Part shown: positions 249-53,916 of the stretch, in pieces | Layout of the letters: each line of letters begins with the position of its first letter | Position numbering within the stretch: the first letter of the stretch is position 1 | DNA from: Phycisphaerae bacterium | GTDB lineage: Bacteria > Planctomycetota > Phycisphaerae > UBA1845 | Reading direction: 5' to 3' | Assembly (NCBI GenBank): GCA_035356615.1 | Contig: DAOQSN010000013.1 | Location: forward strand, 28,882 to 92,881 | Length of the DNA stretch: 64,000 bases | Notes under the pieces: model-generated | The model's database searches: none | What the model saw: the letters and a program-made list of their open reading frames with translations, nothing else | What the model was told of the DNA's origin: nothing | Made by a program: the position numbers and the translations under genes

Positions 249-1550
249 TCATAGCCGACGGCGGCGGGAGGGTCGGAACCGGCTGCCGAGGGTCTTGGGG
301 GGCAGCTTACGTTCCGTCGAGCCGCCCGCTTCGCTGAAAACCGGCGCTTGCAGGCGCGAGACTCGCTGGGGCGGTAGGGCTGGTGGCGGGCCTGCGTCGC
401 GCGGCGGGCCCGACGCGGTGAAACCCTCGATCTGCCGCGGGAGGATTTGCTTGTTGATCAGGCTCTCGATGGCCGTGAGCTGCTTGCCCTCCTCGCGCGT
501 GGTGAGCGTGACAGCTATCCCCTTGGCCCCCATGCGGGCGGTGCGCCCGATGCGGTGCACATAGCCTTCGGAGTCGGCGGGAATGTCATAGTTGATGATG
601 TGCGTGATGGCGCTGATGTCGATGCCGCGGGAGGCTAAGTCGGTGGCCACCAGCACGCGGATGCGGTGTTTGCGGAACCAGTCCATGACCTGGTCGCGCT
701 TGCGCTGGACCAGGTCGCCGTGAATCTCCCGGGCGCTGACGCCGGCGTCGTGCAGTTTCTTGGCGAGCTTGCGCGCCGCGTGACGCGTATTGCAGAAGAT
801 GATGCAGGTTGGGTAGTCCTCCTGCTTCAGGAAGAGCGAGAGCAGGCGAAACTTGTCCCACGGATCGACGGTGATGTAGTACTGCTCGACGCTGTCGACG
901 GTGAGTTCATCGCGCGAGACGTTCACCTCCATCGGGTCCGTGGCATAGCGGTTCGCCAGGTGCTTGATGTCATCCTCGATGGTGGCCGAGGTGAAGATCG
1001 TCTGGTGCCGCTGGGTGACGCGCTGGAGGATCCACTGGATGTCGTCTCGAAAGCCGATGTCCAGCATGCGGTCCACTTCGTCGAGGATGACGTGGCGGAC
1101 GCTGCTTACGTCGAGCGCGCGGCGGCTCATGAAGTCCATAACGCGCCCCGGCGTGCCCACCACGAAGTGCGGCTTGCGGCCTAGGTGGTGCAACTGGGTG
1201 GCCACCCGCTGCCCGCCGTAGATGGCCGCCACGTGCAGGCGCGTAAACTCCGCGAAGCGGGTCACCTCCCCCGCCACCTGGATGGCCAGCTCCCGGGTGG
1301 GCACCAGGCACAGGGCCTGCACCCCGCCGGCCGGGTCAAGCTGCTGCAGCACGGGCAGGGCGAACGCGGCCGTCTTGCCCGTCCCCGTCCGGGCCTGGCC
1401 CATGACGTCCCGCCCCGTCAGCGCCGGGGGGATCATGCCCTTCTGGATGTCGGTCGGCTCCTGGAACTGCATCTTGGCCAGCGCTTGCAGGAAGCGGGTC
1501 TCGACCCCGAGATCGGCGAAAGCGGCTGGAAGTTCAGGTGTCTTCTTCAT
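249..1550 (-). CDS. DEAD-box ATP-dependent RNA helicase
   Basis: ORF 249..1613 was trimmed to the ATG at 1550 (MKKTPELPAAF). It carries a Q motif FQEPTDIQ, Walker A GQARTGTGKTAAF, a DEVD variant of DEAD in ILDEVDRML, SAT and HRIGRTAR. Confidence 0.9.
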   Translation of the reverse strand: MKKTPELPAAFADLGVETRFLQALAKMQFQEPTDIQKGMIPPALTGRDVMGQARTGTGKTAAFALPVLQQLDPAGGVQALCLVPTRELAIQVAGEVTRFAEFTRLHVAAIYGGQRVATQLHHLGRKPHFVVGTPGRVMDFMSRRALDVSSVRHVILDEVDRMLDIGFRDDIQWILQRVTQRHQTIFTSATIEDDIKHLANRYATDPMEVNVSRDELTVDSVEQYYITVDPWDKFRLLSLFLKQEDYPTCIIFCNTRHAARKLAKKLHDAGVSAREIHGDLVQRKRDQVMDWFRKHRIRVLVATDLASRGIDISAITHIINYDIPADSEGYVHRIGRTARMGAKGIAVTLTTREEGKQLTAIESLINKQILPRQIEGFTASGPPRDAGPPPALPPQRVSRLQAPVFSEAGGSTERKLPPKTLGSRFRPSRRRRL

Positions 1551-27472: not shown

Positions 27473-27543
27473 TGCCCGGTGGTGTAATGGTAACACACCA
27501 GGTTTTGGTCCTGGCGTTCCAGGTTCGAATCCTGGCCGGGCAG
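27473..27543 (+). tRNA. tRNA-Gln (anticodon UUG)
   Basis: The cloverleaf was folded by hand. Acceptor tgcccgg/ccgggca has U1-A72, the D arm is gtgt-aatggta-acac, and the anticodon arm is ccagg-ttTTGgt-cctgg. The T arm is ccagg-ttcgaat-cctgg and the discriminator is G. CCA is not encoded. Confidence 0.9.
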
Positions 27544-41608: not shown

Positions 41609-44600
41609 TCATGGACCGGTGAACGCCTGCTGAAAGGCCGCCACGTCGGCCAGGTCCACGTCGTCATCGCCGTCGAAGTCCAGCGTGCCGCAATCAGGAA
41701 ACACGCCCCCCCGCGGGCCGGTCAGGCAGTCGGCAAGGGCGGTCAGGTCGTCGTAGTCCACGCGTCCATCGCCGTCCGCGTCGCCGTTGGCGCGCCGCAG
41801 CGCCCGCACCACTCGGAAGCCTATCTGAGCGAGCGTCGAGCGCGGATCGGCGAAGTTGCGCCGGTTGGTCGCCAGGCTCTCCGAACCGGTGGGTGGATGC
41901 ACGGTGCTGTAGCTGCCGCCGCGGACGGTACGAACGGCGAAGCTGCCCGGCGTGTAACGTCCCTGTAACCACTGATAGACGTTGCCGGACATGTCGAAGA
42001 GCTGGAACGTATTGGCATTGGCGTTCGTGGTGAACGAACCGCCGTGGTTCGAGCCGTCGTAGTAGCCCACCGGCGTGGTGCTGTTGTCGAACGGGTCGCC
42101 GCTGTTCTTGTAGTTGGCATCCGCGCCGGTCAGCGTGTCGCGTCCGCAGCCGTACACGGTGTTGCGCGCGAGGACGCTGTTCCAGGCGGCGGCCTTATAC
42201 CATTCGTTGTAGCCGTCGGCGAAGTCGACGCTGACGTCCGGGTTGTTGTAGCCTTCGTCCATCGGCAGGCGGTACCCGCGGTAGTTCTCCACCAGGGCAA
42301 GGCGTTCGTCATCGTTCAGGTCACGCGTGGACCACAGCGTGCCCGTTGCGGTGACCGGGCGCCAGCCCGCCAGGTCCGCGTCGCTGGCTTCGTTGTAGCA
42401 ACGCTGCTCCGGGCTCATCCCCTGGTCCAGCGTGAGCCAGTTGCAGTACTTCAGGGCCCCGTACCAGCTTGCGCCCGTAACGGGGTGGGCTTCGTAGCCG
42501 GTCTGCACCGAGTACATTTGCGTGCCGTCGTCGTAACTGATCCGCCCCCCCGCGGCCGGCGCAAACATCTTCACCGTGCGCGTGCCGGGCGAGGCTCCGG
42601 TTTCGCGCGCGGCGGTCGTGTTCACATACACGTCGCCCGTCGTCGTGTGGAAGAACATGTACGCACCGCGCGGGGCCGCAGACGTGGTTAGCGCGTCGTT
42701 CAGAAACGCCGCGAACTCGGCGTTGGTGGTGTGATACGCGGACATCTCGAAGTTGTACGCCGGCCCGCCCGGTTGGAGCACGTCCGCCGCGACGTGCGCC
42801 GACGACACGGCGAAGTGTGGATTCACCAGCGTCAGGCTCACGAGCCGCGTGCAGCTTACCGCGTTGGTGAGGTCGGTAAACACGACTTCGGCCTGGTTCT
42901 CGCCTTCCTGCAAGGGGGGGATGGTGGCGTTGCCCACGTCAATGGCGACGACGATGTGCGTCGTGCCGGCAGACGGGAGACTATCGACCACCGGCCCGGT
43001 CCCGCCGTTCAGCAGCACCCAACTGTTTGGTTCCGACGATTCGGCCCGCCACTGGATCGCGCCCGTGTCGTAATTCACGAGCGTGTAGATCGCCGTGGGA
43101 TCCAGGATCGGCCCCCCGGGCACGCCGTAGGCGGTCAAGCCGGTTCGCGGTCCAACCGAAAGCGTCTCCACAATGTGCAGGCGAACCGTCCGCGTCTGCA
43201 CGTGACCCGTGTAGGTGTCCGTGAACTGCACGGTGCCAACATACGTACCGTGGTACAACTGCAGTGCCAGCTCGTTCACCGAGACCGTCATGGTCGCAGG
43301 CGCGCCGCCGGGCAGCACCGTCACGGTGGCGGAACCGACATCCAGCCAATCCACGTCGGCCGCCACGTGAACGTCGATGCCCCTGTCCGTGCGGGCATTT
43401 GTAAGTGTATAGACTTGGAAGGGCAGCGGATCCAGCTCCGGCCCGACCTCCCAGGGGTCCTCGGTCGGCGTGATGAAGATCGGGTCCTGGACCACCACCG
43501 TGACCGTCTCCTCGAGCGTGGCCGAGAGGTTGTCGTTGCCGGGGTCAGTGAAGCGAAAGACCAGCACGGCGTCGTATTCTCCCACCGCCAGAGAGGCGGC
43601 GTCCTCATCCACGCTTACGTCGAAAGACAGGCCGGCGCCCGGCGTGAGCGTCCCGCTGAGCGGGTACTGCCCCGTGATGGACACCCACGGTTGGGCACAG
43701 CTTACCTGATATTGCAGGTTGAAACTTACGAGGCTGCTCAACGCAAACGTGCACGGGTTCGGGTTGATAAACGGGCCGCCGTAGAAACCGGTGAAGACGG
43801 CCGCGTCGTCCGGCGGCGTGACCGCGATGGGCCAGGCGACGTTCACGGTGGCGTTGCGGGTGCGGACTTCATTGGTCCGCGTGTTGCGCCAGGTGGCGAC
43901 GGCCACGTGGGTACCGGGGCCGAGGGCGTTGGCCTCACTGTTGAGCGTGAGGGTCACGGCGCCCTGTTGCCCGGCGTCCAGCGTGCCGCTCGCCTGCCCA
44001 GGCGTCGGCCCGGTGACGGTCAGCCAGGTCTTGTCCGCAGTCAGAGCCCACGGCATCGCGGCAGCCGAGCGGTTGGTGACCTCATAAAGCTGCGTCGTCC
44101 CCGCGGCCTGGCCGGAGCGGTACATACCGGCGTAACTGATACCGCCGCCCGGAGTCAGCAGGAACGGCTCGCGCAGATGCAGTAGGACAAAGCGTTTCTG
44201 CGTGGCACCGCTGAGAGAGTCGGTTACCGTGATCGCCGCCACCCGGCCGGGGTTGCGGACCACCCGAAACCCGACTTGGGCGTCGGCGAGGTCGGGCGCC
44301 AGCGGCTGGCGGGTGGCGTTGGTCAAGTACGCCGACTCCGGCGCGTCATCCCACCCACCGCCGCGCGCCGCCTGTTGCAGGTACGCATTTCCCTGCACCC
44401 ATTCGGCTGCGTTACCACATAGGTCGAACAAAGCGAACCCGTTGCCGGACGCGGTCGTCGGCGTTTCGCCGTCGCCGAGCACGTTTGCGCCATCGAAGAA
44501 ACCACGTGGTGTGGTTCCGCCGACTGTACAATCGTCCTCGTCCTCGAACGGGTCACCGCTGCACCGGAAGTTCGCGTCAGCGGCCGTCAGGGTACCGCGT

Positions 44601-47600
44601 CCGAAGCCGTAGGTGTGCTCGCCACCGGTCGCGTCGTCCCAGGCGGCCGCCTTGTACCACTCGTTGTAGCCACTTGCGCCCGCCTCGGCATCCAGCGGCA
44701 GGCGATAGCCTATGGTCTCGGCTACTATGTTTGCCGGGTCGAATGCCCCGGCAATCCAGTCGGCATCGCTTACGGTAACGGGGTGCCAGCTACTCAAGGC
44801 CGTGCTCGGGGCTTCCGTGTAGACGCGCAGCTCGGGCGGCAGGCCCGCGTTCAGGGTCAGCCAGTTACAATATTTGAGGGCTCCGTACCAGGTTACACCG
44901 GTAACGGGGTGATCCGTGTACCCGTCGTCAACCACGTAAGCGCCGCCGACAAACTGTATATGGCCCGCGCCGGCATCGTAGAGCAGCGGTCCTGCCCCGT
45001 CCGTACCCGCGGCGGGTTCCTGCGTGTCGTGTATATGCACATTGCCGGAGTCAGTGTCGAAATACATGTACTCGCTGCGTGGCCCCGGGTCAACCCCCAC
45101 GGCATCCTGATACGCGTTGTTGAGGAAGGCGGCGAAGTCGCTGTTGCGCACCTCGAATTGCGCCACCCAGTAGTCGTAGGCGGGCCCGCCGGGCTGAGCG
45201 GCATCTGCCGGCACCCAGGCACCGCTGCCCGGCGGTGCGGGTGACACACCGAGCGTATCCACCGCTTCTGACACCCGCAAACGTGCCTCCGCGGTGGCAC
45301 CGGGCGGAACGCGCGGACCGGCCGAGGTGTCCAGGGCCAGCCAGGCGGCGTCAACCGTCACGGACAACGTGTCCAGCGTGTAATCGCCCGCGTTCTCGAT
45401 GGCGAGAACGAACTCGGCAAGATCGTAGGGGCCGCCGACGTACGCCTCCAGACGCTGGGGGGGTACGGGAGTGAGATCGAACTGTGTAAGTGTGTCGGGG
45501 AGGGCCTGCGCCACTCGAAAGCCGAGGAACCGGTAGGCCGCGCTTGCTGCCTGCGAGTTGCGCCCGTCCGCGCGCAGGAGCGGCGCTTGAATCGCGTTGG
45601 TGTAGTTGCCGCCGCGCGTGGCGCGTTCCGAAGCGGTGCCGCCCACGTCCTGCATCCATTCGGATACGTTGCCCGTCATGTCATAGAGGCCGTAGCCGTT
45701 GGCCGTGTCGTTGGTGATGATCGGCCCGGCGATCTCGTGCACCCCATCATAGAACCCCACCGGTGTGGTGTCGGCGAAGGGATCAAGACTCAAGTAGAAG
45801 TTCGCATCGGCGACGGTAATCACGTTGCGCCCGAAACCGTAGTCGGCGTACAGGACGGTCTCCGGCAGCCAGGCCGCCGCCTTGTACCATTCGTTGTAGG
45901 TGCTGACCGCCGCGGCTCCGTCGTCCACGGGCAGGCGGAAGCCGCGCCATTGCCGCAGCTCCGCCGGCGTGCCGAGGGGGCACCACTGATCGGCCGGGTA
46001 GCCTTCGTGATACACCCGCTGGCCGGACATACCGTGAATGAGCGTCAGCCAGTTGCAGAACTTCAAGGCGCCGTACCACGAGACGCCGCCGACAGGGTGG
46101 TTCTCGAAGCCGCTCTGCGGGACGTAGCGACCGCCGGTGAAGCTGATGTAACCGTTGGCGGCCGCATCGAAGAGGACCGTGCCCGTTCCACTGGTTCCCT
46201 GGGTACCGGTCTGCGACGTGTGCAGGTAGACGTTGCCGCTGTCCACGTCGAAATACAGCCACGCGCCGCGTTCGTTGTTGACGTTGGCGAGCGCGTCATT
46301 GAGGAACAGGCAGTATTCGTGGTTGGTGACCTCGAAGCGGCCGATGCGGAAATTGTACGCAGGGGGGGCCGCGGCGTCGCCGGTGACCAGCGCCAGGTCG
46401 AGGACCACGCCGGCCGCGGTGATGACGAGCGTCACGCGGCGGGTGCTCTCGAACGCCGGTTCGAAGGTGGTGTCCGTGAAGATCAGGTCGCCGACGTACA
46501 CGCCCGCCGGCAACTGCGCCGCCACGTCGTTCGGTTCGATGGTCACCAGGGTGCTGCCGTTGGGCTCCAGGATCAGCCCTTCGGTCGGGTTGACGTCGAG
46601 CCAGTCGGCGCCGGACTCCGGGACAAACTCGGCTGACCACCAGCGCTCGCCGAGGGCATTGCCCGCCAGCGTGCAGGACGACGAAGGCGGGGTGAACTCC
46701 CCCCCGAGCGGGCGCGTGAAGCTGATATCGCCGGCCGGCGTTACCCAGTCGTTCACGGTCAGTCCGATGGTACGCTCCACGGTGAAGCCGCTGCCTGGAT
46801 CGTGCTGGAACCGCAGCGTGCTGTCATAGCTGCCGATGTCGAGGATCTCGGCCGCGTAGGTGAGCGTCGCGGCGACCTGCGTGCTGCCCAGCGCGGGGAG
46901 CGTACCCTGATAAGTGTTCAGGGCAAACCAGCTCGACGTCGGTTGTACCTCAACGCGCCAGGGAAGCGTCTCGCTCGCAAGGTTGCTGATCTGCCACTGG
47001 TGTTGCGCCGGCGCGAAGGGTCCCCCGGCCGGGCCGCTGAACAGTTGCGTGCCTGATGGTGCCACCGAGAACCACGGCAACACTTGCAGACTGACCGCGC
47101 GGACCCAGACGCTCCCCGTGCAGCCGTCTGCGAACGTCACCTCCGCAGTGAAGGTGCCGAGGTCCAGGCCGGCGGCCGCACCGGCGTCGATCGCAATGGT
47201 GACCGGCGCGGTGCCCTGCGCCGGGACTTCCCCGCCGACCGGCGGCTGGGTACCGTTCAGCGTCAGCCAATCCAGCCCCGAGGGCGTCGCCGTCGTTTCC
47301 TCCCAGGTGGCCGACCAGAGCACCGGCAGGTCCGAACCGTTCGTGAGTGTATACAGCTTGCTCCCCGGATTCGGCGTCCCACGATAGCGCATCGACGCCG
47401 CCAGGCCGCCGGAGGGCTCGACGTTCAGGGGCTCCGTAACCGTCAGGCGCAGGAGACGCTCGATGACCGTTCCCGGCGGCGGACCATACACAATACCCAC
47501 GGTGCCGATGTTCTCGCCCAGCGTCAGTTCATCGGTCGCGCACGCCGGCGCGACACGCACCGTGAACGCGTAGCTCTCCCCGGGGACCAGCGTGACGTTG

Positions 47601-48856
47601 ACTGGCAGACCGCCCTCGACCTCCAGCCACTCCGCGTCCAGCGTCACGCTGAACGTCGCGTCCTGGTCCGTCACGTTCGTTACGGTGTACTCGCGCGCGC
47701 CGGCGGCATCACTGTAGGGTCCGCCCCACGGTCCTGATACGACGTAGTCAGCCTGCGGCGTCACGAGTACGTCATCGTGCACCGCCTGCACGACGCGGAA
47801 CCCCGTGACGTTGCTGGTCGAATTCGCCGCCCGGTCGGCCCCGAGTGCCGTACGTAGCGAGGACGTCGTGCTGTTCCATGATCCGCCGCGATTGCGCCGG
47901 TCGGTGGCGGCCACGCCTTGATCCTGCATCCATTCCCATATGTTCCCGGAGGCATCATACAGACCGTAATAGTTCTGCTCCGCGTTGGTTTGATAGGTTC
48001 CGCCGTGGTCGCTACCATCGTAATACGCGACGGGCGTGGTGCCGTTGTCGAACGGGTCGCCGCTGTAGCGGAAGTTCGCGTCCGGCCCCGTAATCACATC
48101 CCGCCCGAAGCCGTACAGATGGTTGCAGCCGGCGGGCAGACAGCTCTCGTCCCAGGCGGCGGCCTTGTACCACTCATTGTAAACGGCCGCCGCGTCCGTG
48201 CGGGCGTCCATGGGCAGGCGATAGCCGAGATAGCCCAGCAACGCCTCGCGTTCCGCGCTGTTCAGGTCCCGCACCGCCCAGTTGGCAGCGCTGATCGTGA
48301 CCGGGCGCCAGCCCGACAAGTTCGTGTTCGCAGCCTCGCCATAGACGCGTTCAGCAGCGGTAAGCCCCGTTGCTAGCGTCAGCCAGTTGCAGTACTTGAG
48401 CGCCCCATACCATGACACGCCGATGACCGGATGCTGCTCGCAGCCGGACGCGATCAGGTAGACCCCCTGCCCGACGTTGTAGCTGAGGCAGCCGCCGACG
48501 GCCGCGCTGAACATCAACGTCCCCGACCCCGACGTACCCTTCTGGCCGGTGCTGCTGGTGTTGATGTACACGTCACCGCTGTCGGTATCGAAGTACAGGT
48601 ACGCGCCGCGCTCGTTGTTGAGGTTGTTGAGCGCGTCATTGAGGAACGCGGCGAACTGGGCGTTGGTCACCTCGTGCCTGCCGACGCGGAAGTCGTGCAC
48701 CGGCCCACCGGGTTGCCCATCAAGTCCGGGGACGTAGGTGAACTGCGGGACCGGCGGGTCCGCTTGCGTCGAAGCCACGACCCAAAGTACTGCCGCGATC
48801 GCGACGTCCACGGCGGGCTTGCGCCGCGTCGGTAGGCCACGCCAACGTGCAGCCAC
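41609..48856 (-). CDS. Giant (2415 aa) surface protein: 4 FGE-sulfatase-fold (SUMF1/EgtB/PvdO-like) domains separated by Ig-like spacers, with a C-terminal dockerin-like pair
   Basis: The signal anchor is AVDVAIAAVLWVVAST. FGE-fold units lie at about aa 50-358, 830-1117, 1222-1535 and 2028-2352. Each runs from F.(V/I)G..EVTN..F..FLND through HPV.GVSWYGALK(Y/F)CNWLT and YNEWYKAAAW to GFRV. The C-terminus is DADGDGRVDYDDL...DFDGDDDVDLADV. Confidence 0.85.
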   Translation of the reverse strand: MAARWRGLPTRRKPAVDVAIAAVLWVVASTQADPPVPQFTYVPGLDGQPGGPVHDFRVGRHEVTNAQFAAFLNDALNNLNNERGAYLYFDTDSGDVYINTSSTGQKGTSGSGTLMFSAAVGGCLSYNVGQGVYLIASGCEQHPVIGVSWYGALKYCNWLTLATGLTAAERVYGEAANTNLSGWRPVTISAANWAVRDLNSAEREALLGYLGYRLPMDARTDAAAVYNEWYKAAAWDESCLPAGCNHLYGFGRDVITGPDANFRYSGDPFDNGTTPVAYYDGSDHGGTYQTNAEQNYYGLYDASGNIWEWMQDQGVAATDRRNRGGSWNSTTSSLRTALGADRAANSTSNVTGFRVVQAVHDDVLVTPQADYVVSGPWGGPYSDAAGAREYTVTNVTDQDATFSVTLDAEWLEVEGGLPVNVTLVPGESYAFTVRVAPACATDELTLGENIGTVGIVYGPPPGTVIERLLRLTVTEPLNVEPSGGLAASMRYRGTPNPGSKLYTLTNGSDLPVLWSATWEETTATPSGLDWLTLNGTQPPVGGEVPAQGTAPVTIAIDAGAAAGLDLGTFTAEVTFADGCTGSVWVRAVSLQVLPWFSVAPSGTQLFSGPAGGPFAPAQHQWQISNLASETLPWRVEVQPTSSWFALNTYQGTLPALGSTQVAATLTYAAEILDIGSYDSTLRFQHDPGSGFTVERTIGLTVNDWVTPAGDISFTRPLGGEFTPPSSSCTLAGNALGERWWSAEFVPESGADWLDVNPTEGLILEPNGSTLVTIEPNDVAAQLPAGVYVGDLIFTDTTFEPAFESTRRVTLVITAAGVVLDLALVTGDAAAPPAYNFRIGRFEVTNHEYCLFLNDALANVNNERGAWLYFDVDSGNVYLHTSQTGTQGTSGTGTVLFDAAANGYISFTGGRYVPQSGFENHPVGGVSWYGALKFCNWLTLIHGMSGQRVYHEGYPADQWCPLGTPAELRQWRGFRLPVDDGAAAVSTYNEWYKAAAWLPETVLYADYGFGRNVITVADANFYLSLDPFADTTPVGFYDGVHEIAGPIITNDTANGYGLYDMTGNVSEWMQDVGGTASERATRGGNYTNAIQAPLLRADGRNSQAASAAYRFLGFRVAQALPDTLTQFDLTPVPPQRLEAYVGGPYDLAEFVLAIENAGDYTLDTLSVTVDAAWLALDTSAGPRVPPGATAEARLRVSEAVDTLGVSPAPPGSGAWVPADAAQPGGPAYDYWVAQFEVRNSDFAAFLNNAYQDAVGVDPGPRSEYMYFDTDSGNVHIHDTQEPAAGTDGAGPLLYDAGAGHIQFVGGAYVVDDGYTDHPVTGVTWYGALKYCNWLTLNAGLPPELRVYTEAPSTALSSWHPVTVSDADWIAGAFDPANIVAETIGYRLPLDAEAGASGYNEWYKAAAWDDATGGEHTYGFGRGTLTAADANFRCSGDPFEDEDDCTVGGTTPRGFFDGANVLGDGETPTTASGNGFALFDLCGNAAEWVQGNAYLQQAARGGGWDDAPESAYLTNATRQPLAPDLADAQVGFRVVRNPGRVAAITVTDSLSGATQKRFVLLHLREPFLLTPGGGISYAGMYRSGQAAGTTQLYEVTNRSAAAMPWALTADKTWLTVTGPTPGQASGTLDAGQQGAVTLTLNSEANALGPGTHVAVATWRNTRTNEVRTRNATVNVAWPIAVTPPDDAAVFTGFYGGPFINPNPCTFALSSLVSFNLQYQVSCAQPWVSITGQYPLSGTLTPGAGLSFDVSVDEDAASLAVGEYDAVLVFRFTDPGNDNLSATLEETVTVVVQDPIFITPTEDPWEVGPELDPLPFQVYTLTNARTDRGIDVHVAADVDWLDVGSATVTVLPGGAPATMTVSVNELALQLYHGTYVGTVQFTDTYTGHVQTRTVRLHIVETLSVGPRTGLTAYGVPGGPILDPTAIYTLVNYDTGAIQWRAESSEPNSWVLLNGGTGPVVDSLPSAGTTHIVVAIDVGNATIPPLQEGENQAEVVFTDLTNAVSCTRLVSLTLVNPHFAVSSAHVAADVLQPGGPAYNFEMSAYHTTNAEFAAFLNDALTTSAAPRGAYMFFHTTTGDVYVNTTAARETGASPGTRTVKMFAPAAGGRISYDDGTQMYSVQTGYEAHPVTGASWYGALKYCNWLTLDQGMSPEQRCYNEASDADLAGWRPVTATGTLWSTRDLNDDERLALVENYRGYRLPMDEGYNNPDVSVDFADGYNEWYKAAAWNSVLARNTVYGCGRDTLTGADANYKNSGDPFDNSTTPVGYYDGSNHGGSFTTNANANTFQLFDMSGNVYQWLQGRYTPGSFAVRTVRGGSYSTVHPPTGSESLATNRRNFADPRSTLAQIGFRVVRALRRANGDADGDGRVDYDDLTALADCLTGPRGGVFPDCGTLDFDGDDDVDLADVAAFQQAFTGP

Positions 48857-50152: not shown

Positions 50153-50512
50153 TCGCGGCACTCCTCGGTTGTTGTTGTTGATCGAGGAGGCTGGATGGTA
50201 CACTGGGGGGGCTGGGGTGTCCACGAGGCGGCCGGGCACCTGCGGGAGCGGCTGCAACCGCCGAGGCGCCGTGGCTCGGGCGTCCCGCCCAGCAGGTGCT
50301 TAGCGTGTTCGGCGCTATGGGTGCCGTGCTTTCCCGCGACCGCCGTCGCGGGTAAGCATGGCTTTGCAGTCGTGGCACATGCCCACCCCCGCCTGCGGCG
50401 GCTGAAGGCATGGCACCCAGGCTAAACAGGTATCTCGCCCGAGTGCCCCCGCGCAGGCGAGTTAGCAACGGCTACACCTCTGGTGTGCCGGGCAAGACGG
50501 ACTGGAGGCACG

Positions 50513-51157
50513 ATGGACAAGGAGTGGCCGATCTTCTGTCCGCAGTGTGGCGAGCGGCTGCGGGCCCGCCGAGGCGTGGCCGGCAGGCAGGTCGAGTGTC
50601 CCCGGTGCCGCCAGGACTTCGTGGTTCCCGACGGGCTCTTTGCCGCTCCGCCGAGTGCCCCTGCGACCACGGACCAACCGGGGAATCCTGGGGCCGGAGC
50701 CGGTCAGTCTTCCGCGCCTGGCACATCCGCCTCCGGGTCGCGGGGTTGGGGGTCTGGGTCGGCCGGGTCGTCACCGCAGGCGTCTTCGGCAGCGGTCCGG
50801 CCGCCCGCGTGGAACCCTGCTTCGGCGGGCGTGCCGGGGACACAGGCGGGCGGGGGCCCTGTGTCACCGGGCGGTGTGGCGTGCGGGTCGCCTGTCTGGG
50901 TGCCCGAACCGCCGCCGCCCGGGGTGTCTGCCGCACGCACGAGCGGGCATGCCATAGCGGCGTTGATCGTCGGATTGTGCGGGCTGTTCGTGTTCAAACC
51001 GTTCCTGGCGATCATCGCCATTGCGTTGGGGATCCGCGCGCGGCGTGACATCGCGCGGAATCCGCACCTGGGCGGCTGGGGCCTGGCGACCGCGGGCATC
51101 GTGGCGGGCGCCATCGAATTGGTCTTCGTCCTGGTTGCGCTGCTGGCCTGCGCGTAG
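50513..51157 (+). CDS. Zinc-ribbon plus DUF4190-type membrane protein
   Basis: The ATG at 50513 gives MDKEWPIFCPQCGERL...VECPRCRQDFVVP. A Gly/Ser/Pro linker follows. The C-terminus is AIAALIVGLCGLFVF.PFLAIIAIALGIRARRDI..NP...G..LATAGIVAG. Confidence 0.7.
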   Translation: MDKEWPIFCPQCGERLRARRGVAGRQVECPRCRQDFVVPDGLFAAPPSAPATTDQPGNPGAGAGQSSAPGTSASGSRGWGSGSAGSSPQASSAAVRPPAWNPASAGVPGTQAGGGPVSPGGVACGSPVWVPEPPPPGVSAARTSGHAIAALIVGLCGLFVFKPFLAIIAIALGIRARRDIARNPHLGGWGLATAGIVAGAIELVFVLVALLACA

Positions 51158-51279
51158 GTCACCCATCACTGGTCGGCTGCCCCACGGAGACTGCGTCGGC
51201 ACCTGACAAGGAACCACGGGAACCGGGACGCACACGATCTTTGAAACTAGCTGCGTACCCGTTCCTCCCCGGGGAATCG

Positions 51280-51498
51280 CTACTGCGCTGGCGCAGCACA
51301 CCCAGATGATCCGGGCGCCTTGGGCGGTACCGCTTGAGGCGGAGCGGGTGTACCCCCGAGGATTCGCTGCTTCCAATCCGGCCAAGTTCCGACCACCCTA
51401 CTGGCCTGCTCCAAATGCTCGACGAACGCATCGCGTTGTCCTTGGTGCGCCTTTGCTTGAACCGGCATTTGCTTCGCTTTCTGCTTGTCAACCTCCAT
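51280..51498 (-). CDS. Small ORF (72 aa from the ATG) overlapping the stop of the deaminase gene; candidate partner protein
   Basis: The ATG at 51498..51496 is preceded by GGAG with a 7-nt spacer and overlaps the deaminase TGA (51490..51488) by 11 nt. The sequence is MEVDKQKAKQMPVQAKAHQGQRDAFVEHLEQASRVVGTWPDWKQRILGG followed by a Pro-rich tail. Confidence 0.4.
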   Translation of the reverse strand: MEVDKQKAKQMPVQAKAHQGQRDAFVEHLEQASRVVGTWPDWKQRILGGTPAPPQAVPPKAPGSSGCAAPAQ

Positions 51499-53341
51499 TG
51501 CCAAGCTCCGTGACCGCGCTGCGGGCTTTGTTGAACATGTCTCCGGCGACGAACTCCAGGTCCAGGTACGACGCGGGCAACATCTGGAGCCGGAGCCCGC
51601 TTTGCCCAGCCTTCCACTCCATCACCCGCCCCGCTACGTTCTTCCGCTCCACAGGATACCCGGAACCGAGCCGGATTGAAAAGAGGTCGAAAAACCGCCG
51701 GGGACCAACGCCGACGAAGGGCTCGAAGCATACCATCCGGCGGTCATCAGGCGGGGACCCCAGGTCGGCAAAACCGACCTGGATCGAGTCCGAATGAAAC
51801 TCGGCAGCCTTCGACTTCTCGTACGGCTCGATGAACACAACACGGTGGATTCCAGCCCCCACAATGTGCTTGGCGCAGTTGTGGCACGGGAAGGTGGTGC
51901 AGTAGAGTGTGCCGCCTTGGGTAGGCGCTCGGATTCGACCGCAGGAAAGCAGAGCGTCCATTTCCGCGTGCACTACGCGCCCAAACTCGGTCAAGTCGCG
52001 GATACGGCTTGCGTCGAGGGCCTCACGGACCTTCTCGCGGTCAAGCCCAGTCTTCTCCGCGCGGTCTAGGATCTCATCGATGATCTTCTGCTGTTCGACC
52101 TTGTTGGAATCTTCGCCCCTCATGTAATCGCGCCCGTCCTCCTGGTCCTCGATCCGGTGCGTCTTGGGATTGCGCACGGGCCAATATCGTCCGCCGTTTG
52201 CACGAGGGCAGTCATTGGCACCGGTGGCGACGACCTGCTCGTCGACCGCCACGACGGCGCCGACTTGACGGGACAGGTCGGCGGAGCTGAGTGAAGCCGC
52301 GAAGGCGAGAAACATGGCGTACTCATCGAAAGTCGGGGTCACGTACGGGTTCCCGAAGAGGAGTTCGAGAATCCGCCACACGCTGTCTTTCAGATGGTCG
52401 TCCTGCCCATCGATCCGCACGAAGAAGTCGGAGAGGTGAAACGTGTCGGCAACTCTCTGGCCGTGGGGTAGGTGCTCGTTCTCATCGCGGTCGATGAGCT
52501 CGTTCGCCTTGGCGTCGGATATCGATTTGTCTTTGGTCAGGTAGTCAAACCGCCGTTTTTCGTCAGCATGCACACCGATGAGGTAGAACCCCTGCGGATA
52601 GATCTCGCGCAGACGACCAACCTCGTCGGGGTGTTTGAGCGAACTGATGACGTACGCACACCTGGGTACATGTTGCGGGCACCCGTTCTCGTCCTTGCTC
52701 CTTTGGGAGTTGATGTACGCGGCAGCGCCAAGAGCCAGTATCGAGTTGTCACCTGATGTAGCGCGCGCCTCGTTCCCCGCATCCATGAGGCCACTGAGCC
52801 GATCGTATTCGGAGCTTCCGGAACGTGGGATGTTCTCGACGATCTTCGGGATCACGTCTTGCGTGATCCGGATCTGTCTGACCGAGTAGCCAGCCTTTCT
52901 TAGCCAGTCGTCGAGAATACCCCGCACCTTCTGCAGCTCTGTGCCGACCGCTCCAATCAGTGCAAACACCAACTCGGACTCGGAGAAGGCCCTCTGCAAC
53001 AGCCCAGACCGACCTGCCCCTGACTCTGCTGTTGCCATGGGCACGGGGACTGTGACTTCAGCACCGTGTCTCTCCGGGACAGTTTCCCTCTGCGGCGTCA
53101 AGCCGGGCGCAGCATCGACGGGCGTACCCGTGAGAGCGGCAATGACCTCGTCACGCAACTTCTCCGCACCAGGCGAGTTGCCTTGGAAGGTGAGCGATCC
53201 GGTCGACGGGTACCAGTTCAGGACTCCGCCTGCGGGCGTTCGGAGTTGCTTCTGGTTCGGGTTCAAATCGCGCCACACACCACTGATGTGCTGGAGCTTC
53301 TCCCTGAACTCCTCGTAGCTGCCGGTAAACCGTACGTTCAT
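51488..53341 (-). CDS. Anti-phage dCTP/deoxycytidylate deaminase (AvcD-like: kinase-like P-loop-derived domain + zinc deaminase) with an extra N-terminal module
   Basis: The C-terminal deaminase reads TPTFDEYAMFLAFAASLSSADLSRQVGAVV, HAEMDAL (zinc His plus catalytic Glu) and TTFPCHNCAKHI (PCxxC). The middle region ELVFALIGAVGTELQKV...YVISSLKHPDEV..LREIYPQGFYLIGV has the layout of the nucleotide-kinase-like domain of the defence deaminases. Residues 1-75 are additional. Confidence 0.82.
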   Translation of the reverse strand: MNVRFTGSYEEFREKLQHISGVWRDLNPNQKQLRTPAGGVLNWYPSTGSLTFQGNSPGAEKLRDEVIAALTGTPVDAAPGLTPQRETVPERHGAEVTVPVPMATAESGAGRSGLLQRAFSESELVFALIGAVGTELQKVRGILDDWLRKAGYSVRQIRITQDVIPKIVENIPRSGSSEYDRLSGLMDAGNEARATSGDNSILALGAAAYINSQRSKDENGCPQHVPRCAYVISSLKHPDEVGRLREIYPQGFYLIGVHADEKRRFDYLTKDKSISDAKANELIDRDENEHLPHGQRVADTFHLSDFFVRIDGQDDHLKDSVWRILELLFGNPYVTPTFDEYAMFLAFAASLSSADLSRQVGAVVAVDEQVVATGANDCPRANGGRYWPVRNPKTHRIEDQEDGRDYMRGEDSNKVEQQKIIDEILDRAEKTGLDREKVREALDASRIRDLTEFGRVVHAEMDALLSCGRIRAPTQGGTLYCTTFPCHNCAKHIVGAGIHRVVFIEPYEKSKAAEFHSDSIQVGFADLGSPPDDRRMVCFEPFVGVGPRRFFDLFSIRLGSGYPVERKNVAGRVMEWKAGQSGLRLQMLPASYLDLEFVAGDMFNKARSAVTELGNGG

Positions 53342-53399
53342 GTGTTGCCTCGGTTAGCTGGCTTTGCGTCTCAGCGCCGCTCGGCTGTGGGGACCCCAA

Positions 53400-53597
53400 C
53401 TACCCACCATCATACGACGTACTGCGCGGCAGGTCGAGTGGTTCCTCTGCTTCCTCCTGGTCGAGCACGTCCCAGCCCAGGGCCCTTAGTAACGGATTGA
53501 TCACCTTGCTGCGCGTGGGGGTCTCCTTGAGCTGCTCGCGGCGGAGCCTGGGAAGGCGGGCGCGCAGGTCCTCGATCTCTTTGATGAGCTGCTGCAT
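53400..53597 (-). pseudogene. Truncated HsdR_N-like ORF (65 aa); probable remnant of a restriction or other defence gene, or a small adaptor
   Basis: MQQLIKEIEDLRARLPRLRREQLKETPTRSKVINPLLRALGWDV matches the E.(Q/T)TR..(L/V)I.P.L..LGW opening of type I restriction-enzyme N-terminal domains, then stops after 20 acidic residues. GGAGG lies upstream. The ORF ends 58 nt before the deaminase start. Confidence 0.4.
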
Positions 53598-53916
53598 GGG
53601 ATGAGTACCTCCGGGAGTGCCACGACGACGCAAAGGAAACACCTCGACAGGGCTAACGCGTCGCGCGGGCTCATGTGGCGAATCGTAACCTGGGGGTCAG
53701 GTCGGTTCAAGGTCGAGCATCGAACCGGCCCGCTTGGGCGCGGGGATGGCAACCCAGGGGAACGTCTGCTGCTCGCTTTCCGCCTCGGCGGTCGGACGTA
53801 ACAGACACGCGCGGGAAATGACTGCCGGGTGACGACGTGCTCGGCATCCAGTTCGGCCCGTTCGAAGACTGCTCCGGCCGGGGAGCGCACCGGTGACGAT
53901 GGACGCGGGACGGCCT

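Follow-up and report, generated by a model that had tools for sequence, protein, structure and literature searches.

Anti-phage defense by AvcD-type dCTP deaminases is widespread (>7,800 homologues) and is currently described as the work of a single gene or of an enzyme accompanied by a small RNA (sRNA). Characterized members of the family are toxic unless restrained, and the restraint is exerted post-translationally by an unstable antitoxin, AvcI (bioRxiv 10.1101/2021.03.31.437871; PMC10511110). AvcI is an RNA located 5′ of avcD that acts untranslated; the open reading frame (ORF) embedded in it need not be translated, and its homologues show no sequence similarity to one another (bioRxiv 10.1101/2021.03.31.437871). 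In our full-text searches, the AvcD papers and a 2025 review presented the deaminase either with the 5′ sRNA AvcI or as a single gene, and no small ORF on the 3′ side was mentioned. Another point of comparison is the toxin-first type II toxin–antitoxin operons, such as higBA and mqsRA. Here, we examined a 64,000-nt stretch of the genome of a Phycisphaerae bacterium of the phylum Planctomycetota (contig DAOQSN010000013.1, positions 28,882–92,881; hereafter “the window”), in which a small ORF on the minus strand begins at the very end of a gene for an AvcD-type deaminase. An earlier note on this DNA had proposed that the small ORF encodes a protein partner, possibly an antitoxin, of the deaminase.

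Our comparisons place the small ORF as the conserved second member of a predicted two-gene operon, in which the deaminase gene comes first. As a bare ORF it is unremarkable, and its conservation is what raises it above chance. Relatives were collected at one genome per species, giving 80 loci with a deaminase 41–69% identical to that of the window over the best-matching segment; the 3′ end of the deaminase gene is complete in 78 of them, and the window was counted separately. A tblastn search with the 72-aa peptide matched the DNA directly 3′ of the deaminase across many of these loci, and an ORF with the motif W-[PA]-x-W-[KRE] lies directly 3′ of the deaminase, on the same strand, in 60/78 loci as well as in the window. 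A profile hidden Markov model (HMM) built from the motif-bearing ORFs added two loci (L027 and L039), which brings the count to at least 62/78; at E < 1e−3, it found a homologue in 62 of 81 regions (the 80 related loci and the window). Throughout approximately 0.57 Mb searched in six frames, every HMM match at E < 0.01 was immediately 3′ of a deaminase and on the same strand, with none elsewhere in the 80 related loci. Divergent versions were recognized by eye in approximately nine more loci (L028, L041, L055, L068, L069, L073, L074, L078, and probably L059), and the small ORF was clearly missing only in L007, L008, L049, L060, and L071, with L056 and L072 uncertain.

The homologous ORFs encode 47–76 aa with the core F..HLE.AS..V..WP.WK(Q)..LG, and their carriers include Planctomycetota, Myxococcota, Thermodesulfobacteriota, Acidobacteriota, Pseudomonas, Vibrio, Photorhabdus, Morganella, Enterobacter, Lentisphaerae, Lachnospiraceae/Oscillospiraceae (Firmicutes), and P4 satellites of Escherichia coli; the GC content of these loci spans 31–69%. 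On a neighbor-joining tree of the deaminases, the small ORF occurs throughout the clade and its absences are scattered tips, the sole deep branch without it being the distant enzyme of E. coli AW1.7. When 1.84 billion cluster representatives were searched exhaustively with the profile, 172 proteins matched at E ≤ 1e−3, nearly all of which are 50–75 aa long and carry the motif. A word search with the single 72-aa sequence gave no match, which reflects a limit of the word index rather than absence, and a pattern scan of metagenome DNA gave four true small-ORF matches among 120 pattern matches, mostly at contig ends and too few for a fraction.

The overlap of start and stop, with a geometry consistent with translational coupling, is also a family trait. 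Counted from the final base of the deaminase stop codon, the small ORF starts at −3 (an ATGA overlap) in 17 loci, at −7 in 7, at −10 in 5, at −16 in 5, and at −13 in 3, and most of the remaining starts are within approximately 20 nt of the deaminase stop. In most related loci, the best starts are mostly ATG preceded by a Shine–Dalgarno (SD)-like element. The window belongs to the −10 class: its deaminase ORF ends ...GAG CTT GGC AAT GGA GGT TGA, and the ATG of the small ORF lies within this end (..GCAATGGAGGTTGA..). The coupling geometry that the earlier note had described, with an ATG, a GGAG 7 nt before it, and an 11-nt overlap with the deaminase stop, was recovered on the minus strand in every element, and the start overlaps or abuts the deaminase stop in most of 61 loci.

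Selection acts on this gene at the protein level. The pooled ratio of nonsynonymous to synonymous change (pN/pS) was calculated for a 26-codon core anchored on the first Trp, in the ORF frame and in the two other frames. In the ORF frame, it was 0.26 among 10 Photorhabdus species, 0.27 among 7 Pseudomonas, and 0.39 among 12 loci of the Planctomycetota/Myxococcota type, including the window, whereas the other two frames gave 1.15–1.38, 1.27–1.50, and 1.22–1.68, respectively. Over the whole small ORF, the ratio was 0.44–0.64, higher than in the core because the tail is free to vary. Column entropy by codon position (61 loci) was greatest at third positions (1.64), followed by first (1.33) and second positions (1.08). 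The in-frame constraint and this order of entropies point to a translated gene rather than an RNA element or a chance frame, and the small ORF is almost certainly a real protein-coding gene.

The same results bear on two other explanations. Since the known regulator of this enzyme family works as an RNA, whether or not its embedded ORF is translated, the conserved element could itself be an RNA, for instance one that parallels AvcI on the 3′ side or a regulatory untranslated region, with the ORF incidental to it. However, amino acid conservation accompanied by synonymous turnover, with ratios above 1 only out of frame and the highest entropy at third positions, weighs against this explanation; the nucleotides diverge across the whole GC range while WPxWK stays, and most copies have an ATG and an SD-like element. 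Furthermore, the 3′ flank of the small ORF in the window, up to the convergent neighboring gene, gave no Rfam match and no terminator-like, unusually stable, or excess RNA structure. We regard the RNA explanation as very improbable. A chance ORF in GC-rich DNA had also been considered in the earlier note. Many ORFs of similar or greater length overlap this position in other frames (e.g., a 190-aa ORF at 51159..51731), the single-sequence word search found no homologue, and the GC content at third codon positions is atypically low (0.60 versus 0.74–0.85 in the neighboring genes), which weighs against a gene here. All the comparative evidence opposes this explanation, and conservation across phyla together with purifying selection effectively refutes it, leaving it a negligible likelihood. 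The earlier note had proposed to judge the ORF by its conservation, and by the integrity of its frame, next to homologous deaminases; the ORF is kept, co-oriented, coupled, and under purifying selection beside deaminases across phyla. At the genomic level, the idea of a protein partner is well supported by this conservation, coupling, and selection.

The large ORF matches the PADLOC dCTPase model PDLC02373 (E = 1.6e−161, residues 119–606) and Pfam PF00383 (dCMP_cyt_deam_1; E = 1.5e−15), with the deaminase domain at residues 338–504, and its translation contains the zinc motifs HAE (VHAEMDAL) and PCxxC (PCHNCAKH). It has 7,898 homologues at E ≤ 1e−30, many of which are named “anti-phage dCTP deaminase” (NCBI names, and UniRef names for the close ones). 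Judged by these matches, it is an AvcD-type anti-phage dCTP deaminase, a known defense gene. A P-loop kinase-like domain is expected at the N-terminus, but no Pfam kinase match was found in the window deaminase; the expected Walker A site reads GAVGTE versus GRTGSGCT in AW1.7, and the region aligns within the PADLOC profile. The enzyme begins with an optional extension that is common to the Pseudomonas homologues and to a yecA-adjacent E. coli variant, while many relatives align only from approximately residue 115; the extension does not track with the presence of the small ORF.

The locus resembles AvcID (DcdV–DifV) of Vibrio cholerae and its relatives in that an enzyme of the same dCTP/dCMP deaminase family shares an operon with a small adjacent element, and a nucleotide-depleting enzyme kept silent until infection is a likely further similarity. 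In contrast, AvcI is an untranslated RNA on the 5′ side, whereas the element in the window is on the 3′ side, has its start coupled to the deaminase stop, and shows conservation at the protein level. In the 575-nt leader upstream of the window deaminase, which is the place of AvcI in the characterized systems, no AvcI-like element was recognized: there was no Rfam match, and the fold z-score of +1.85 indicated no excess structure. Because AvcI homologues do not share sequence similarity, this null result neither favors nor rules out the replacement of the RNA by a protein in the window. A 65-aa ORF within the leader probably represents the remains of a gene; at the corresponding place in characterized avcD homologues, where AvcI lies, there are small ORFs that are unannotated or hypothetical.

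The small ORF had been set apart in the earlier note as a different regulatory solution from that of the Vibrio AvcID system. This contrast is unsupported as stated, since Vibrio harveyi and Vibrio hepatarius carry the same small ORF after the deaminase. In V. harveyi (CP025537.1, 1095886–1101406; L093–L096), genes for an AAA ATPase, a VspR-like protein, and an HTH protein are followed by avcD and then by the small ORF, in a VSP-I-like arrangement. The V. harveyi small ORF encodes 55 aa (MSPNSTLVAHLSKSKNRVESWPAWKQEQ...) with WPAWK and overlaps the deaminase stop by 14 nt; it is missing from the gene calls recorded for the two NCBI assemblies, and it is called in ENA/Logan assemblies of the same sequence. 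The Vibrio examples are these two species, and the AvcD of V. cholerae is not among the best 120 of the 7,898 homologues. With such carriers in Vibrio, the small ORF looks like an added component of the deaminase family rather than a replacement peculiar to this genome. The family of small proteins is apparently undescribed and an overlooked extra component of much of the deaminase family. The E. coli copy is annotated in RefSeq as a “hypothetical protein” (WP_000021256.1; MSIENGFIKHVVATKKIINEWPEWKKNMLGG...) and begins 1 nt after the “anti-phage dCTP deaminase” WP_044686932.1. This pair is located in the psu–integrase cargo hotspot of P4-like satellites next to tRNA-Sec, in 12 complete genomes; examples are NZ_CP106924.1 (55516–57211) and O157:H7 strains (L081 and L082), where both genes are annotated by PGAP.

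The peptide encoded in the window is MEVDKQKAKQMPVQAKAHQGQRDAFVEHLEQASRVVGTWPDWKQRILGGTPAPPQAVPPKAPGSSGCAAPAQ, which includes VVGTWPDWKQRIL and a Pro/Ala-rich tail. The earlier description of an approximately 72-aa basic helical peptide with a Trp-rich motif and a Pro-rich tail agrees with its isoelectric point (pI) of 9.4 and with the helices at residues 13–37 and 41–47 that AlphaFold2 (AF2) predicts. A basic charge was rejected as a trait of the family, in which net charge is not conserved (median pI 8.0, interquartile range 5.7–9.8). In an alignment of 107 sequences, W39, P40, W42, and K43 do not vary, L29 and V36 hardly vary, and the consensus is F..HLE.AS..V..WP.WKQ..LG. The AF2 model based on these 107 sequences joins the two helices through a tight W-P-D turn; the predicted local distance difference test (pLDDT) score is 96–97 for residues 21–40, 87 for residues 41–50, and 64–69 for the remainder, which is without secondary structure. 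A shallower alignment gave the same topology. We are confident in the predicted architecture, an approximately 30-residue two-helix hairpin that turns at the invariant W-P-x-W-K and is followed by a variable disordered tail. Across the family, the median tail length is 23 aa, and S/G/A/K/P/E/T are abundant in the tails. Because the hairpin is so small, and such folds usually need a partner, it is most plausibly a binding element.

The hairpin motif recalls the villin headpiece (VHP, PF02209), whose F..(hydrophobic)..LP.WKQ..L resembles the ...WP.WKQ..L of the small proteins, and 5/49 members match this model weakly. The best of these matches (E = 0.0035–0.0054) score approximately 17 bits against a Pfam cut-off of 27 bits, and the window ORF itself does not match. 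The headpiece has three helices, unlike the two-helix hairpin predicted by AF2, and there is no structural match. We therefore rejected a villin headpiece identity, on the grounds of the sub-threshold scores and the number of helices, and treated the resemblance as motif convergence. No solved structure and no predicted viral structure matches the small protein. Within the deaminase itself, residues ~436–455, which form the helix before HAE (..F.KHL..S.I.D.TE(F/Y)GR..), match the first helix of the small-protein profile very weakly (E values of 0.4–9), as do P0165, P0248, and P0190; the match of the deaminase helix is probably due to chance.

The small ORF is likely to be functionally tied to the deaminase and is probably an overlooked regulatory part of this defense system. 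The reading that we favor, to which we give a probability of roughly 40%, is that the small protein is a labile inhibitory subunit, an antitoxin-like lock on the deaminase, as far as its role may be judged from comparative sequence data. The hairpin would bind the deaminase as a small, co-translated regulatory subunit, and the labile lock would keep a potentially self-toxic, dCTP/dCMP-depleting enzyme quiet until the lock is lost, once a phage shuts off host gene expression. It may act alongside the upstream AvcI RNA or, in some lineages, instead of it. Because toxic AvcD relatives are already held by a labile antitoxin, a second labile lock fits the known logic, and a small disordered protein produced in parallel with the enzyme would suit such a role. 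As in the type II operons higBA and mqsRA, a small downstream gene appears to be co-transcribed with that for a potentially toxic enzyme, and the small protein is partly disordered. Type II antitoxin genes adjoin, and are co-transcribed with, their toxin genes; here the two genes are on the same strand and overlap or abut in most of the 61 loci. The small gene is also tolerated as an orphan once the putative toxin has been lost, as in one metagenomic locus (L288). Compared with L029 (2794..4607), this locus retains the small ORF (424..642; nucleotide identity 77%) together with the terminal part of the shared upstream neighbor, and the deaminase gene is wholly missing. This single case of an orphan small ORF is the pattern expected of an antitoxin that has outlived its target.

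Several observations weigh against an inhibitory subunit. Within the clade, some deaminases are intact although no small ORF follows them (L007, L008, L049, and L060), and the yecA-adjacent E. coli variant, also without a downstream small ORF, is intact in at least 18 complete genomes. The deaminase of E. coli AW1.7, which has the same enzymatic defense strategy and the same annotation as an anti-phage dCTP deaminase, differs from the window system in being 25% identical to its enzyme, in forming the outgroup of the tree, and in having no WPxWK ORF downstream in its native locus. This enzyme is experimentally validated, defends as a single gene, and was cloned with only approximately 83 nt of upstream DNA (bioRxiv 10.1101/2021.04.26.441389). 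Since such deaminases stay intact or defend without the small ORF, it is not generally required to prevent toxicity, and the small protein is not universally needed either against self-toxicity or for activation. In the AvcID work on Vibrio parahaemolyticus, in which AvcD was C-terminally His-tagged and expressed from the native promoter, AvcI alone sufficed for control and its loss sufficed for activation (PMC10511110). Searches of the window ORF and 49 homologues against Pfam, NCBIfam, and PADLOC matched them to no family and revealed neither a DNA-binding domain nor homology to an antitoxin family. The locus differs in this respect from type II operons, as it does in the tolerance of the deaminase to loss of the small gene; neutralization of the enzyme by the small protein is our proposal. 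No natural fusion of a deaminase with the hairpin was found among 120 deaminase homologues. Finally, a gene that is downstream and coupled would yield no more small protein than about one copy per deaminase, although antitoxins are typically produced in surplus, and both the binding and the direction of regulation are what we infer.

The genomic evidence for a partnership would apply equally to a small protein that is a positive partner, that is, a sensor, adaptor, or assembly cofactor that switches the deaminase on or helps it to assemble, its hairpin recognizing a phage cue or pairing with phage proteins that bear the same module. Coupled synthesis in equal amounts is more natural for a stoichiometric subunit than for an antitoxin, which would be produced in surplus, and a second inhibitor would be redundant where characterized relatives already have an RNA inhibitor. 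Various early phage proteins contain the module by itself, in fusions, or as tandem copies, which would also fit the recognition of like with like. However, AW1.7 defends without the small ORF and other deaminases persist intact without it, the published AvcD constructs, apparently also without it, are activated by phage, and the L288 orphan, which outlasted its deaminase, is more readily accounted for by an inhibitor. We consider a positive role rather unlikely, but it is the main rival of the inhibitory reading.

The hairpin is not restricted to deaminase loci. The window ORF matches two families of phage proteins of unknown function by profile, phrog_38465 (E = 5e−6, residues 17–47) and phrog_29728 (E = 2.8e−4, residues 21–47), which have the hairpin module in common with the small ORF and differ from it in that the phage copies are not beside an AvcD-type deaminase and are often inside larger proteins or duplicated in tandem. 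The module is in the N-terminal part of orf44 of Pseudomonas phage D3 (residues ~30–70), in the early region beside erf and an exonuclease gene. It also occupies the N-terminus of the 178-aa protein XDG30861.1 of Vibrio phage P018-4; in other proteins, it is fused to an HNH endonuclease, embedded in phage-like proteins of 150–340 aa, and present as tandem double hairpins (P0012, P0013, P0043, P0057, and P0080). Approximately 12 IMG/VR contigs with the module were found among the first 120 pattern matches, none of them with the module beside an AvcD-type deaminase; one IMG/VR locus (L209) encodes it in a 64-aa protein. Some copies (P0019, P0031, P0040, and P0050) belong to arrays of small genes on the same strand or sit between genes for a Dam-like methylase and a UvrD helicase, and others (P0009 and P0015) directly follow deaminase fragments with the 11-nt overlap seen in the window. 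A second motif, S.xPT(V/N)SxPRxP(V/I), directly follows the hairpin in a subset of the family that includes deaminase-linked as well as phage-like members (L052, L067, L027, L028, L041, P0040, P0041, P0082, P0087, P0121, and P0127); in L028 and L041, it is retained while WPxWK has decayed.

Such contexts might suggest that the small protein is real but independent of the deaminase, a mobile hairpin of phage origin that acts on another target and travels in defense islands and satellites. In addition to the PHROG matches and the frequency of the module in phages and other mobile genetic elements away from any deaminase, the loci L288 and L220 have the module without a deaminase. However, a tight start–stop overlap across phyla and across the GC range, and presence throughout the clade, are hard to explain without functional coupling, and within the 80 related loci the module is nowhere except directly 3′ of the deaminase. 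Independence from the deaminase is thus improbable. If the small protein is an inhibitory lock, the phage homologues are readily explained: they would either mimic the lock as anti-defense proteins or pair with it and titrate it away, triggering the enzyme. Phage genomes that have the module without the deaminase are as expected for mimics or triggers. It is possible, as a tentative extension, that the WPxWK hairpin is an interaction module shared by bacteria and phages, such that AvcD defense in most lineages has an unnoticed protein lock that phage copies mimic or strip. If so, a layer of sensing and evasion at the protein level would be added to a defense now described as purely RNA-controlled (type III), and two PHROG families would gain a first function.

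Since a coupled small gene is conserved across most of the diversity of the family, one component has probably been missing from studies of the system, the published constructs having carried only the deaminase ORF or a C-terminally tagged version of it. If the small protein regulates the enzyme, the model of silencing and activation changes, and the poor defense conferred by some homologues in heterologous hosts may also find an explanation. Phage early genes with a homologous module are candidates for anti-defense or trigger proteins, and the E. coli P4-satellite pair, with both genes already annotated, is a convenient experimental allele. The features of the window locus are listed in Table 1.

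Table 1. Features of the deaminase locus in the window (coordinates are positions within the 64,000-nt stretch)
Feature	Position	Strand	Basis or remark
Deaminase gene, 617 aa, assigned as AvcD-type anti-phage dCTP deaminase	51488..53341	minus	PADLOC dCTPase, PF00383, names of homologues; stop TGA at 51490..51488
Optional N-terminal extension of the deaminase (~residues 1–115)	52997..53341	minus	Weak match to PADLOC PDC-S35 (E = 1.5e−7, residues 4–74)
Leader/intergenic region upstream of the deaminase gene	53342..53916	minus	575 nt
65-aa ORF in the leader	53400..53597	minus	Weak match to the N-terminus of type I restriction R subunits (HSDR_N; E = 0.0019, below the cut-off)
Small ORF, 72 codons and stop	51280..51498	minus	Member of the conserved deaminase-linked WPxWK small-protein family; ATG at 51498..51496, TAG at 51282..51280
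Alternative TTG start, two codons earlier	51504	minus	Gives the 74-aa version in the ORF list
GGAG, SD-like, within the last deaminase codons	51506..51509	minus	7-nt spacer to the ATG
11-nt overlap of small-ORF start and deaminase stop (translational-coupling geometry)	51488..51498	minus	Direct reading of the sequence
Conserved core, residues 21–48 (QRDAFVEHLEQASRVVGTWPDWKQRILG), predicted two-helix hairpin	51355..51438	minus	Alignments, AF2, PHROG matches
W-P-D-W-K turn motif, residues 39–43	51370..51384	minus	Alignments
Variable Pro/Ala/Ser-rich tail, residues 49–72, predicted disordered	51283..51354	minus	AF2 pLDDT 64–69, no secondary structure
Convergent neighbor, zinc-ribbon and DUF4190 membrane protein	50483..51157	plus	PF13828 (E = 1.5e−13)

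The GC content of the deaminase and small-ORF pair (51280..53341) is 0.61–0.62, compared with 0.675 for the whole window and 0.64–0.72 for the flanking genes. This lower value suggests an acquired island and is consistent with horizontal acquisition. The convergent neighbor ends 123 nt from the stop of the small ORF. Elsewhere in the window, a 2,415-aa ORF (41609..48856, minus strand) is built from several long repeats, in each of which ...NEWYKAAAW... and ...GFRVV... segments recur, and a tRNA gene (27473..27543, plus strand) is the only Rfam match of the window at the gathering threshold.

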